Notes: a model not told the origin generated them from the letters alone. 64,000 nucleotides of DNA from Chloroflexota bacterium (GCA_034666565.1 JAXDLN010000036.1:32079-96078), one strand, 5' to 3'. Positions 17,315 through 25,067 are shown, numbered from the stretch's first letter. Numbers and translations: made by a program.

Positions 17315-18826
17315 GTGCTGCCACGGCCGGCGGCCCTGCCGCTGCCGGCCGCCACCCGCGAGCTGCTGACGTCGCTCCAGCAGGGGGCGATCTCCGCGGC
17401 CGCCTACGACACCGCTTTCGTCGCCCGCCTGCGCCAGCCCGACGATCCGAACGCGCTGGCCTTCCCCCAGACGCTGGCCTGGCTCCTTCGCAGCCAGAAC
17501 CCCGATGGCAGCTTCGGCACCACCCTGCCGATTCCGAAAGACAAGCTGGTCTCCACCCTGAGCGCCCTGGTGGCGCTCGCCGACCTGCCGCAGAACCTCC
17601 AGGACGGGGTCGCCCACCGGGCGCGGACCAGGGCGCTGCGCTTCCTCTACGAGGACACCGGCAACTGGCAGACCGGCCCGGACATGGCCGGCTTCGAACT
17701 CGTGCTCCCCGCCTTGCTGGACGAGGCCAAGGTCCGCGGACTCCCCCTTCCCTACGAGCGCTTCATGGGGATCTCCGCCCAGCGCGACGCCAAGATCGGC
17801 CACATCCCACCACGGCTCATCTACAACGTCAAGACGCCCTTGCTGCACTCCCTCGAGTACCTGGGCAACCGGCTCGACGTCGAGGCCGCCCGGGCGCAGC
17901 TCTCCCCCAACGGCTCCTTTGCGAACTCACCGTCGGCGACGGCGTATTTCCTGCTCAAAACCCGCGACGAGCAGGCGAACGAGTACATCGCCCTGCTGCT
18001 GCGCAACCGGGGTGACGGCAGCATTCCGACGGTCGCGCCCTTCGAGATCTTCGAGATCGCCTGGGTGCTCTACAACCTGGCGCGCGCCGACCACCGGCCG
18101 GCTGAAGCGCAGCCCCTGCTGCGCTACCTCGCCCAGGCGCTCACCGACGACGGCGTCGGCGTCTCGCGCGAGGGCCTTCGGGCGGATGCCGACGACACCG
18201 CCCTGACGCTCAGCGTCCTGCACCGCTACGGCTACCCGATCTCGGCCGGGCCGCTGCGGCCGTTCGAAGGCGTGAACTTCTTCTTCACCTTCCCGCTCGA
18301 GCGGGATGCCTCCGTCACCGCCAATGCCCACGTCCTCGAGGTGCTCCAGGTCGTGCCGCCCTTCCCTCGCCAGCATGTGATTGCGCAGAAAGTCGTCAAG
18401 TACCTGCGTGATGCGCGCGTAGACGGCGATCACTGGGTCGACAAGTGGCATGGTTCCCCCTTCTATGCCACCGCCCACGCCGTCTTCGCGCTCACCGCGT
18501 CGGCACCCGACGCCTGCGCCAAGGCTTTCAGCTGGTTGCGGGACAGCCAGCGAGAGGATGGCTCCTGGGGATGGTTCTCAGCCGGCACCCCGGAAGAAAC
18601 CGCCTACGCCGTCCAGGCCCTGATGCTGGCGCCGGCCGAGTTCCGGGCGGGGCTGAAGGAGCAACTGAGCCGGGCTTCCGCCTATCTGAATGAAACCGAA
18701 GGGGAGCCCGTCATTCCTATGTGGGTCGGCAAGACGCTCTACGGGCCCACCCAGGTCGTCCGGTCGGCGGTGCTATCCGCGCGAACCATGCTGGCGAGGA
18801 GCGAACATGCTAGATCGGCGAATTAA
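17315..18826 (+). CDS. class II diterpene cyclase (copalyl/halimadienyl-diphosphate-synthase-like)
   Basis: 503 aa with a DxDD general-acid motif in context GLRADADDTALTLSVL and an alpha/alpha-barrel (QW-like) architecture. The size fits bacterial class II diTPS rather than ~650-aa squalene-hopene cyclase. GTG start. Confidence 0.75.
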   Translation: MLPRPAALPLPAATRELLTSLQQGAISAAAYDTAFVARLRQPDDPNALAFPQTLAWLLRSQNPDGSFGTTLPIPKDKLVSTLSALVALADLPQNLQDGVAHRARTRALRFLYEDTGNWQTGPDMAGFELVLPALLDEAKVRGLPLPYERFMGISAQRDAKIGHIPPRLIYNVKTPLLHSLEYLGNRLDVEAARAQLSPNGSFANSPSATAYFLLKTRDEQANEYIALLLRNRGDGSIPTVAPFEIFEIAWVLYNLARADHRPAEAQPLLRYLAQALTDDGVGVSREGLRADADDTALTLSVLHRYGYPISAGPLRPFEGVNFFFTFPLERDASVTANAHVLEVLQVVPPFPRQHVIAQKVVKYLRDARVDGDHWVDKWHGSPFYATAHAVFALTASAPDACAKAFSWLRDSQREDGSWGWFSAGTPEETAYAVQALMLAPAEFRAGLKEQLSRASAYLNETEGEPVIPMWVGKTLYGPTQVVRSAVLSARTMLARSEHARSAN

Positions 18827-19715
18827 CAAGCTCAAGGAAAACCTGCTGGCGCAGGGCGACGAGCGCGCGGTCATCCGCCACCTCGTCGACGCCAACCCGC
18901 GTGGCGACGACATGCTGGGTGAGGTCTGCCGCGCCGCCGTTCTGCTGCACCCCAGCGCGAGCTTCGAGCAGGCGCTGACCCTCGCCCGCACCATGGCCTA
19001 CATCGTCTATATCGACGACTACCTCGAAGAAGAACATCCCGAGCTCGATCTCGCCGACTACCGGCGAGTCTGCCAGAACTTCCTGCTCTGGCCCAACCGG
19101 GACCTGAGCCAGATGCCCCTGGTCAACGCCACCGTCACGCGCAAGATCGAGGAGCAGTTCCGCGAGGACGAAGTGCCCGAAGAGTGGACCGCCATGCGGC
19201 GCCTGGTCTGGGAGAAGTCGATCTGGACCATGCTCCAGGAGAACCACTGGCTGAAGCACAAGGAGCGCGTCACGCTTGACGCCTACCTGGCGAATGGCAT
19301 GTACAGCAGCTCCTTCCCGATCGTCCAGGTCTCGATCCTCGCCTTTTCCTACCAGGACGTCTCGCAAGAGCTCAAGAACCGAATCTTCGGCCACATCTGT
19401 CAGGCGGCGCGCGTGGTGCGGCTGGCGAACGACCTGCGGACGCACGAGCGCGAGGCGGCGCAAGGGCGCTTCAACTCCGTGGACCTGATCTTCGGCGCAC
19501 CCGGCGAGCGCACGCTCGAGAGCGCACGCGTCGCCGTGCATCACCTCATGGAGGAGGAGTTCGAACAGCTCAAGAAGGCGATTGGACGCGAGCGCCGCAC
19601 CGGCATCACGCAGCAATTCTTGAGCCACCTGATCGACAGCACCCAGGTGCTCCTCGACTTCTATGAAGTCCCGCGCGCCAAGCCCCGCTCGGATCGCCTG
19701 CTGAGGGCGGGCTGA
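18807..19715 (+). CDS. class I terpene (diterpene) synthase
   Basis: 302 aa with an Asp-rich motif IVYIDDYLEEE (DDxxE) and the NSE/DTE triad LANDLRTHEREAAQG. Its start overlaps the cyclase stop by 20 nt. Confidence 0.75.
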   Translation: MLDRRINKLKENLLAQGDERAVIRHLVDANPRGDDMLGEVCRAAVLLHPSASFEQALTLARTMAYIVYIDDYLEEEHPELDLADYRRVCQNFLLWPNRDLSQMPLVNATVTRKIEEQFREDEVPEEWTAMRRLVWEKSIWTMLQENHWLKHKERVTLDAYLANGMYSSSFPIVQVSILAFSYQDVSQELKNRIFGHICQAARVVRLANDLRTHEREAAQGRFNSVDLIFGAPGERTLESARVAVHHLMEEEFEQLKKAIGRERRTGITQQFLSHLIDSTQVLLDFYEVPRAKPRSDRLLRAG

Positions 19716-19724
19716 GTCGAAACC

Positions 19725-24238: not shown

Positions 24239-24302
24239 CGGGCGTGCCGAACGTTTGCAGGGGGCGGCAATCCGGCCTGGCTGCCAGAATAGGGGCAGGA
24301 GG

Positions 24303-25067
24303 ATGGGGTCAACGGCATTGCCGTCGCGCACCCCGAGGGTCGTGACATATCTCATTTGGGTTGTTCTGCTACTGCTCGCCGTCGGCGAGCCGGGCGCGAA
24401 AGGTCCGGTGATGGCCCCCAGCGAGGTGCTTGGCGTGCACGCCGGAACGGATAATCAGGGCTTGCAGGGCAAGGTCTACGTGGCCCTCGGCGACAGCATC
24501 AGCGCGGGCCGATTTGCCACCGCCCAGGACGGGACCTTTCCCGCGCTGGTCGCGGATAAGCTGGGCATGACGCTCAACCTGGTAGCGCGGAGCGGGGCGA
24601 AGGCGGCCTGGGCGTTGCCGCAGCTGGGCCAGGTCCAGGCGGGCCATCCGGCGCTCGTCACCATCGAGCTCGGCACCAATGACGCCGGGTTCAATACGCC
24701 GCTCGACGCCTTTGCGGCGCAGTACGACGCGATCGTCAGCGGCGTCTCGGGCCCGCAGACCCGCGTCCTCTGCATCGGCAGCTGGCTGCCCTCGACCGCG
24801 ATCGATGCCATCATCGTGCAAACCTGTGAGCGGCACGGCGCGACCTTCGTCAGCCTGAACGGCTTTTACGCCGTCAACGACTTCCACGGCGTCGACGGTG
24901 GGTCGAGCTACCTCGGCCGGACCGACTGGTTCCATCCGGGCGACCAGGGCCACGCGGCGATCGCCGCGGCTGTGCTCTCGGCACTGGGCGCGGGGCCGGC
25001 GCCGGTCGTCGGCCCGCTACCGTCGGTGTCGCACCTCCCTGATGTGATCCGCACCCGGCCGCAATAA
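24303..25067 (+). CDS. SGNH/GDSL-family hydrolase (secreted or membrane-anchored)
   Basis: AGGAGG 7 nt upstream of ATG 24303. N-terminal hydrophobic anchor. Block I VALGDSISAG and block III LGTNDAGF. Confidence 0.65.
   Translation: MGSTALPSRTPRVVTYLIWVVLLLLAVGEPGAKGPVMAPSEVLGVHAGTDNQGLQGKVYVALGDSISAGRFATAQDGTFPALVADKLGMTLNLVARSGAKAAWALPQLGQVQAGHPALVTIELGTNDAGFNTPLDAFAAQYDAIVSGVSGPQTRVLCIGSWLPSTAIDAIIVQTCERHGATFVSLNGFYAVNDFHGVDGGSSYLGRTDWFHPGDQGHAAIAAAVLSALGAGPAPVVGPLPSVSHLPDVIRTRPQ

Follow-up and report, generated by a model that had tools for sequence, protein, structure and literature searches.

A labdane-related diterpenoid operon of Candidatus Dormibacterota and its possible coupling to membrane c-di-GMP signalling

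A 64,000-nt stretch of DNA from a Chloroflexota bacterium (GCA_034666565.1, JAXDLN010000036.1:32079-96078), hereafter called the window, carries at positions 17315-25067 an operon in which the genes of a putative labdane-related diterpenoid pathway enclose a gene for a membrane protein predicted to act on cyclic dimeric guanosine monophosphate (c-di-GMP). The comparison of homologous loci indicates that this predicted c-di-GMP gene is an integral and conserved partner of the terpene synthase pair, beyond Dormibacterota as well, and not an intruder; therefore, the likely biological role of the cluster changes. We hold at even confidence a reading in which the operon would couple the synthesis of a labdane-related diterpenoid to c-di-GMP signalling, with the diterpenoid or the state of the membrane as the cue of the sensor.

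The homologous loci were retrieved on the basis of the cyclase, and the counts of signalling genes that follow rest on the 80 Genome Taxonomy Database (GTDB) species-representative loci listed from this retrieval. A signalling gene was counted when it lay on the same strand and at most 2.5 kb downstream of the cyclase unit. Such a gene was found in 10/10 assessable Dormibacterota loci, in 9/9 other Chloroflexota-like loci with a class I synthase, in 23 of the 28 loci in which the partner of the cyclase is an Rv3378c-like gene and in 0/6 actinomycete loci. In the far flanks the density of signalling genes was 0.007 per kb, compared with 0.33 per kb immediately downstream, a ~46-fold difference, and the true ratio is somewhat lower because the kinase hidden Markov model is blind to HisKA_3-type kinases and the background is therefore underestimated, perhaps 2-3 fold.

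The features of the locus are the following (amino acids are abbreviated as aa):

15802-17010, minus strand: MFS transporter, 402 aa (PF07690 MFS_1, 42.1 bits, cut-off 33.4; the gene call of the source contig agrees)
17196-17301, plus strand: 5' leader element, ~105 nt (aligns across 17 Dormibacterota loci)
17279-18826, plus strand (annotated GTG at 17315): predicted class II diterpene cyclase (PDB 6VPT matched over the full length)
18807-19715, plus strand: predicted class I terpene synthase, 302 aa (PF19086, PF03936, both metal motifs)
19725-22148, plus strand: protein with six transmembrane (TM) helices and GAF, GGDEF and HD-GYP domains, 807 aa (Pfam, AlphaFold2 model)
22152-23201, plus strand: type 2 flavin mononucleotide (FMN)-dependent isopentenyl diphosphate (IPP) isomerase, IDI-2 (TIGR02151, 405.8 bits, cut-off 281.3)
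23198-24238, plus strand: short-chain trans-prenyl diphosphate synthase (PF00348, 216 bits)
24303-25067, plus strand: SGNH/GDSL hydrolase whose N-terminus is a hydrophobic anchor or a signal sequence (PF13472, Lipase_GDSL_2, 75.9 bits)
25069-26694, minus strand: convergent PucR/CdaR regulator (PF07905, PF17853, PF13556)

An earlier note on this DNA had described six genes on one strand, namely a class II cyclase, a class I synthase, a membrane GGDEF/HD-GYP protein, an FMN-type IPP isomerase, a polyprenyl synthase of the geranylgeranyl diphosphate (GGPP) type and an SGNH hydrolase, flanked by a divergent MFS transporter and a convergent PucR-family regulator. The open reading frames (ORFs) of the window bear out the six near-touching, co-directional genes, and Pfam and NCBIfam models support each domain assignment among the operon proteins; the two flanking genes were found as well. 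The junctions also agreed (the 3' end of the cyclase gene overlaps the synthase start by 20 nt, a 3-nt gap separates the GGDEF/HD-GYP gene from that of IDI-2, and the IDI-2 and prenyl synthase genes overlap by 4 nt), except that the gap between the synthase and the GGDEF/HD-GYP gene is of 9 nt and not 10. The 64-nt gap before the SGNH gene is the one given by the ATG at 24303, while the longest ORF opens at the TTG at 24255.

Conservation of the sensor gene and features of the sensor

Every Dormibacterota locus of sufficient length keeps the six-gene array, with rsfS-nadD-obgE-L27-L21 next to it each time, and since the order recurs in every one of these loci the arrangement is not a matter of chance. 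In relatives at 35-45% cyclase identity, the flanks have nothing in common with those of the window, and no genes remain for IDI-2, the prenyl synthase, SGNH, MFS or PucR; in L005, L006, L024 and L164 the cyclase and synthase genes still adjoin one for a full-length homologue (a GGDEF-HD-GYP fusion) of the 807-aa protein. In more distant Chloroflexia bins (L039, L044, L050, L057 and L070), the homologous 6TM-GAF part is fused to HisKA/HATPase, and each of the five has a neighbouring gene for a c-di-GMP enzyme (GGDEF-HD-GYP, GGDEF-EAL or REC-GAF-HD-GYP). Two other Chloroflexota loci (L029:6685-8340 and L040:10540-12198) carry, directly after the cyclase-synthase pair, a 551-aa methyl-accepting chemoreceptor with six membrane helices and no periplasmic domain, followed in L029 by CheW and CheR. 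Where an Rv3378c-like gene precedes the cyclase, the downstream genes encode a 6TM-(PAS)-kinase and then a stand-alone receiver.

The association was also seen from the side of the sensor. The reciprocal retrieval with the kinase-type TM domain returned 70 metagenome loci, and in the GAF-bearing clade the cyclase was directly upstream in 13 of 15 assessable loci; one of the two exceptions has a prenyl synthase in that place. The entry P0302, which lies at a contig end, was left out of the judgement. Homology among the three kinds of sensor membrane domain was considered and rejected, the hhalign probabilities being 0.7-3%.

Some of the loci carry further genes near the pair. In L036 (2411-3376, minus strand) a UbiA prenyltransferase gene lies between cyclase and sensor, and in L047, L076, L083 and L084 genes for a GT87 glycosyltransferase, a FemAB-like protein, an ICMT-like methyltransferase and a sulfotransferase lie upstream of the Rv3378c-like gene. 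Such neighbours may mean that the terpenoid is modified further or that the system is connected with the cell envelope.

The sensor of the window comprises six TM helices (residues ~20-190), a signalling helix, a GAF domain (221-369), a GGDEF domain (376-532) and an HD-GYP domain (607-768). Its catalytic motifs are intact (RRED I-site, TVTRY, GGEEF, HDVGK of the HD..GK type, and HHHEWYDGSGYP), and those of both domains are conserved in the alignment of the sensor homologues. Since both catalytic sites are intact, the protein is predicted to be bifunctional, that is, able both to make and to degrade c-di-GMP. In the AlphaFold2 model of residues 1-370 (mean predicted local distance difference test score, pLDDT, 79.9), six membrane helices are followed by a long signalling helix and a GAF fold, so that the sensor part is purely intramembrane and has no periplasmic domain. 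The conserved residues of the TM part (E28, R35, D97, G109-G110 within TGGxxSPF, R129 and R172) lie in the helices or cap them. A Foldseek search with the N-terminus returned GAF domains only and no structural analogue of the TM part.

The PilS domain (PF25323, 6TM_PilS) has features in common with this TM domain, namely six helices, an N-in/C-in topology, short loops and a TGGxxSPF-like motif, and PilS senses a hydrophobic partner, the pilin, inside the bilayer. The model gave no match to the window sensor at E ≤ 1; among the sensor homologues it scored 26.7 bits on P0301 (cut-off 27) and reached E-values of 0.0055 on P0298 and 0.036 on P0295. This points weakly to a TM domain of the PilS-like 6-TM type, with the difference that no pilin genes lie near the sensor. 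A homologue search with the TM-domain profile returned short Dormibacterota fragments only. Paralogous 6-TM clades fused to GGDEF or to a kinase occur in L097, L100, L110, L119-L121, L129, L130, L145 and other loci.

The predicted diterpene pathway and its known relatives

The cyclase read from the annotated GTG at 17315 has 503 aa, the motif DADDTA and a SQHop_cyclase_C domain (Pfam). Its best PDB match, over the full length (residues 23-494, E 1e-67), is 6VPT, the Rv3377c protein of Mycobacterium tuberculosis, and the next ones include PtmT2 and Tpn2 (5BP8, E 9e-40; 7XKX, E 2.4e-33). Squalene-hopene cyclases, the family to which a full-length alignment would have assigned it, match at residues 335-435 only (~100 aa, E 5e-6), and the squalene-hopene model TIGR01507 scores 30.7 bits against a cut-off of 431. 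In the DxDD acid motif (D291-A-D293-D294), D291 and D293 are invariant in the cyclase alignment, and of the 98 aligned relatives almost all retain the middle Asp. H339 is the counterpart of the activating H341 of Rv3377c, DKWH is invariant and Y476 is conserved; the activating His, the (D/E)KW motif and the hallmark residues of Rv3377c are described in PMC9585517. Coherently, the assignment of the protein as a class II labdane-related diterpene cyclase of the Rv3377c subfamily is supported by its sequence. Stowell et al. 2022 (PMC9814783) call this subfamily 'terrabacterial' and remark that it is uncharacterised.

The resemblance to Rv3377c extends to the small residue G472, which occupies the position of A475. 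The hallmarks that set Rv3377c apart are absent, as the window cyclase has DxDD and not DxDT, and His178/Thr239 in the place of Phe171/Ala234, at the positions of the His/Asn dyad of copalyl diphosphate synthases. Because it is without these distinctive substitutions, the name 'halimadienyl-diphosphate synthase', given automatically by the Joint Genome Institute (JGI), is unjustified. The dyad His speaks against that name, although Tpn2 shows that in bacterial enzymes this His does not settle the matter, and the Tyr476-type residue, found in every bacterial type II enzyme, has no diagnostic value (both PMC9814783). Gly472 sits where the labdane-forming actinobacterial cyclases mostly carry Asp (PMC9814783 for the actinobacterial residue). 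The skeleton of the product, whether of labdane, halimane or clerodane type, is not readable from the active-site residues, which agrees with what the earlier note had said of the product.

The class I protein passes PF19086 (Terpene_syn_C_2, 60.3 bits, cut-off 23.7) and PF03936 (Terpene_synth_C, 53.6 bits, cut-off 26.3). It carries, as had been described, both metal-binding motifs, IDDYLEE (DDxx(D/E)) and NDLRTHERE; the latter type of motif is kept in 38/38 aligned class I homologues, and the first is degenerate in the Thermomicrobiales-like L006, L007, L022 and L024 (D[DEGA]xxD) and in the Actinomadura relatives L064 and L077 (DAWTD). A profile of the class I family, built without actinomycete rows, matched Sat1646 (E 8.7e-30) and Stt4548 (E 9.6e-30); the other solved structures were an unnamed terpene synthase (9kgb, 3.6e-26) and, for all else, matches of 4e-11 or weaker. 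Sat1646 and Stt4548 convert copalyl diphosphate to isopimara-8,15-diene (PMC9814573). They are thus the closest solved relatives of the family (PDB 7E4N and 7E4M), accept substrates of the copalyl diphosphate type and, like the window synthase, have ~300 aa with DDxx(D/E) and NSE/DTE motifs, although the match of the single sequence reaches just E 1e-3 at low identity. The sequence evidence supports a labdane-related terpene synthase.

For the supply of the precursor, IDI-2 exceeds the cut-off of the NCBIfam equivalog model TIGR02151. The top NCBIfam models for the prenyl synthase are of the GGPP type, yet they remain under their cut-offs (IdsB, 230 of 475 bits; GGPP_syn, 206 of 500 bits). The protein carries DDVQD with a Phe at position -5, and a Phe at -5 before DDxxD fits, by the textbook rule, a C20 product. 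It is probably a GGPP synthase. Taken together, the production of a labdane-related diterpene from GGPP by the operon is well supported as a prediction.

Among the known systems, the terpentecin enzymes Cyc1/Cyc2 (Tpn2, PDB 7XKX) form, like those predicted here, a bacterial two-enzyme pathway of class II and class I, and the O-methylkolavelool cluster of Herpetosiphon aurantiacus (Haur_2145-2147) is likewise a two-enzyme cluster of Chloroflexota without P450s. However, Tpn2 groups with actinobacterial copalyl diphosphate (CPP) synthases and Haur_2145 with ent-CPP synthases of the gibberellin type (PMC9814783), so that the subfamily of the window cyclase is different from both, and a signalling gene is described in neither of the two clusters. 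The actinomycete isopimaradiene clusters show the opposite of the window, with P450s present and no adjacent membrane sensor (0/6 loci).

The locus for 1-tuberculosinyladenosine (1-TbAd) differs in other respects: in Mycobacterium it has no sensor gene, and the partner of its cyclase is a transferase of the Rv3378c type instead of a canonical class I synthase. Rv3378c is the tuberculosinyl transferase that makes 1-TbAd. No Rv3378c homologue was found in the window. In the loci first taken as having the cyclase alone, an ORF of 300-318 aa abuts the cyclase start and is a full-length Rv3378c homologue; the one in L047 (7042-7971, plus strand) has no Pfam match and matches 3WQK with E 4e-66, and the cyclase beside it scores 433 bits against Rv3377c, compared with 232 bits for the window cyclase against 6VPT. 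Such Rv3378c/Rv3377c-like pairs occur in 36 loci of the sample (L047 and 35 further ones, L027-L086), chiefly in Anaerolineae/Chloroflexota bins, plus records of Methanosarcina, Rubrobacteraceae and Syntrophothermus. A 2024 paper reported that orthologues of Rv3378c/Rv3377c outside mycobacteria could not be found (PMC11476799), and no mention of Rv3378c together with Chloroflex* appeared in the literature searched.

Upstream region and genomic setting

The leader upstream of the cyclase ends in a Shine-Dalgarno-like GGGGG run followed by an invariant ACG. It contains a hairpin that covaries (GC/AU/GU/UG), a mini-hairpin GGC-RGUA-GCC with one compensatory change and an invariant loop, GUAGCCUC. 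The covariation score was above those of all 500 shuffles and of all slid controls; the z-score of the single-sequence fold was -1.1, RNAalifold on the MAFFT alignment was weak, and one hairpin has covariation support. All the Dormibacterota loci have this leader, which is specific to them, and its covariance model matched this position alone in the 461 kb searched. Rfam covariance models run on 17000-17340 at E ≤ 10, including c-di-GMP-I and c-di-GMP-II, gave only a chance microRNA match on the opposite strand (E 2.5). The leader is possibly a riboswitch or a translational control element.

The invariant ACG, at 17279, has the GGGGG run 5-8 nt on its 5' side (window 17265-17317), and in 17/18 orthologue rows the reading frame is kept between the ACG and the GTG (33, 36 or 45 nt); the row of L018 was mis-anchored by the pattern match. 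From the ACG onward the sequence is coding-like, with indels in multiples of three and a conserved peptide TE[IL]NDV, and upstream of it is not; L010 and L013 have no annotated GTG and show CTG at that site. Because of the in-frame stretch, the conserved peptide and the two orthologues without GTG, the cyclase probably starts at ACG 17279, 36 nt upstream of the GTG, which gives 515 aa. Thus, the identity and DADDTA motif that the earlier note gave for the cyclase hold, and its length of 503 aa probably needs revision.

Between the MFS and cyclase genes (window 17090-17170), GGACAACG, CTTTCCCnGGTCATnGGCCTGTGAC and ACGGnnnCGTGAC follow one another as conserved blocks with GTCA/TGAC half-sites and may serve as a promoter or an operator, e.g., as a target of PucR. 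A scan of the intergenic region for sigma-70 promoters and terminators found nothing. The divergent MFS protein may be an exporter, and the gene calls of L001/L002 and L004 likewise have an MFS gene there; another upstream ORF (15770-17125), considered as the MFS gene, had no Pfam match at E ≤ 1 and is in the wrong frame. At the other end, the SGNH gene is kept at its operon position in Dormibacterota loci only, and the PucR gene, whose stop codon is 1 nt from that of SGNH, is present in most Dormibacterota loci and absent from L004.

The window lies within an 866,548-nt Candidatus Dormibacterota contig of the JGI metagenome 3300044832, and the cyclase homologues at 60-98% identity are nearly all labelled as Candidatus Dormibacteraeota or Chloroflexi bin. 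The surroundings of the operon are housekeeping genes throughout, with LeuRS, ComEC, thiolase, Lon and FtsH upstream and RsfS, NadD, Obg, L27, L21, Maf, ValRS, Lon, ClpX, ClpP and trigger factor downstream. Neither mobile-element genes nor P450 or further terpene genes were found in the window, and no P450 or other oxidase within ~20 kb of the operon, as the earlier note had remarked of tailoring oxidases. The best explanation is a chromosomal, vertically inherited operon of a soil bacterium of Candidatus Dormibacterota.

A thiolase (acetyl-CoA acetyltransferase) gene lies ~7 kb upstream of the operon (window 8839-9993, minus strand) and a GHMP kinase gene on the source contig just outside the window, beyond its first letter; these two and IDI-2 may point to the mevalonate route. 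Elsewhere, the region 32000-36000 has the top G+C of the window (0.70-0.72) and a strong AT skew of +0.23 to +0.28; here two neighbouring genes (520 and 523 aa) without a Pfam family lie between Maf and a zinc-ribbon protein.

Proposed role of the operon and alternative explanations

In the reading that we prefer, IDI-2 and the prenyl synthase would supply GGPP, the DxDD cyclase would protonate it to a bicyclic diterpenyl diphosphate, and the class I synthase would ionise the latter to a hydrocarbon or an alcohol. The intramembrane 6-TM domain would read this lipophilic diterpenoid, its diphosphate precursor or the resulting membrane state, and the cue would tip the balance between diguanylate cyclase and phosphodiesterase, leading to a c-di-GMP-dependent switch of lifestyle. 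The compound may leave the cell through the divergent MFS protein, and the circuit would then be autocrine or quorum-like. The enzymatic steps are backed by sequence and by what is known of the families, and we infer the signalling part of this reading from gene neighbourhoods only. The pairing survives the turnover of the flanks, the swap of output domains and the replacement of the sensor type, as would be expected if one partner were the source of a signal and the other its receiver. Moreover, the outputs are behavioural (c-di-GMP enzymes, CheY-like receivers, a chemoreceptor) and not DNA-binding, which argues against a simple cluster-situated transcriptional regulator. All this suggests that the terpene would be a signal or a membrane cue rather than an antibiotic.

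An analogy for such a circuit could be found in RpfF-RpfC-RpfG, the system of the diffusible signal factor (DSF), and in CqsA-CqsS, in which the gene for the synthase of a lipophilic signal adjoins that of a polytopic-membrane sensor; the likeness is one of gene order. The output of Rpf is an HD-GYP c-di-GMP phosphodiesterase, and the order in L044 (cyclase, synthase, TM kinase, REC-GAF-HD-GYP) would mirror rpfF-rpfC-rpfG. The signals of Rpf and Cqs are a fatty acid and a hydroxyketone, whereas that of the window would be a terpenoid, and the likeness is one of analogy and not of homology.

Several observations weigh against this reading. Every sequence compared is metagenome-derived, and gene adjacency does not tell in which direction causality runs between cue and regulator. 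The product is not determinable from sequence. The remaining five of the 28 loci with an Rv3378c-like partner have no sensor, nor does any of the six actinomycete loci, and the background behind the density ratio is underestimated, as said above. The paralogous TM-GGDEF and TM-kinase clades have unrelated neighbours and no terpene genes nearby, so that the TM family is broader than the terpene link. Finally, since the three sensor TM domains have no detectable homology, a shared specific ligand pocket is not implied.

Part of these observations would fit a reverse or parallel wiring, which we consider rather unlikely. Here the input of the 6-TM sensor would be something else in the environment or envelope, e.g., desiccation, temperature or membrane stress, the terpenoid would not be its ligand, and the terpenoid genes would be co-expressed or c-di-GMP-controlled as one output of a stress or dormancy programme. 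The TM family members without a cyclase nearby speak for it, the three unrelated types of membrane sensor that adjoin cyclases would suit a general link with the envelope, and the PucR regulator and the structured leader suggest a separate control of operon expression. However, it is hard to see how an enzyme pair would be regulated by a chemoreceptor or by a CheY-like receiver that stands alone, and the tight translational coupling and the persistence of the pairing match the pattern of a signal source and receptor. A further explanation, which we rate as improbable, is that the diterpenoid is a structural, hopanoid-like membrane lipid and that the sensor monitors the bilayer in the manner of DesK, for homeostasis. 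The location among core housekeeping genes, the own precursor supply without tailoring oxidases and the intramembrane sensor without a periplasmic domain would all agree with it. On the other hand, Dormibacteria are reported with squalene-hopene cyclase homologues (PMC7306690), so that a hopanoid surrogate is not obviously needed, and a divergent MFS exporter is more in keeping with release of the compound than with its retention as a lipid; Dormibacterota account for at least 16 of the 80 loci listed, so that the operon need not be widespread in the phylum.

Among the cluster types of soil genomes, terpene clusters rank first (PMC7298704), and the operon could be an ordinary cryptic secondary-metabolite cluster in which the GGDEF/HD-GYP gene stands by accident. 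We regard this as very improbable, given the presence of the sensor in all the 10 Dormibacterota and 9 other class I synthase loci, the ~46-fold enrichment of signalling genes by the cyclases and the pairing kept at 35-45% cyclase identity amid unrelated flanks. Equally hard to credit is a terpene-nucleotide conjugate, in which, by analogy with 1-TbAd, the class I enzyme would move the diterpenyl group onto a guanine nucleotide made by the GGDEF domain. The membership of the cyclase in the Rv3377c subfamily and the true Rv3378c homologues of the sister loci would be in its favour; against it, the window has no such homologue, its class I enzyme belongs to the canonical Sat1646 type, and the homologous loci swap the GGDEF enzyme for a kinase or a chemoreceptor.

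The coupling of diterpenoid synthesis to signalling that we prefer for the operon could also be extended, tentatively and with some doubt, to the whole enzyme family. Rv3377c-family cyclases and their partners might make membrane-active terpenoid signals that are read by polytopic-membrane receptors encoded next door, in an undescribed class of systems widespread in Chloroflexota-related soil bacteria. The cyclase would be partnered by a class I synthase in the window and by an Rv3378c-like transferase in Anaerolineae, and the outputs would be c-di-GMP turnover, histidine-kinase phosphorelay or chemotaxis; the 1-TbAd genes of M. tuberculosis would be an offshoot without sensor.

The pathway itself is of a known kind, and its conserved coupling to membrane signalling proteins is undescribed in the literature searched, where we found no joint report of HD-GYP and terpene synthase, of terpene cyclase, histidine kinase and Chloroflexi, or of Dormibacterota and c-di-GMP. 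The purpose of bacterial terpenes is largely open, and for one large enzyme family comparative genomics offers a testable answer, as its terpene genes are tied to membrane sensors that govern c-di-GMP, phosphorelay or chemotaxis. Furthermore, the Rv3378c/Rv3377c-like pairs of Anaerolineae bear on the unresolved origin of 1-TbAd, a virulence lipid of tuberculosis. If the terpenoid is indeed the ligand, this would be the first bacterial terpenoid-based signal/receptor circuit described, and it would give a new family of lipid-sensing input domains and a handle on the control of lifestyle in the uncultured phylum Dormibacterota.

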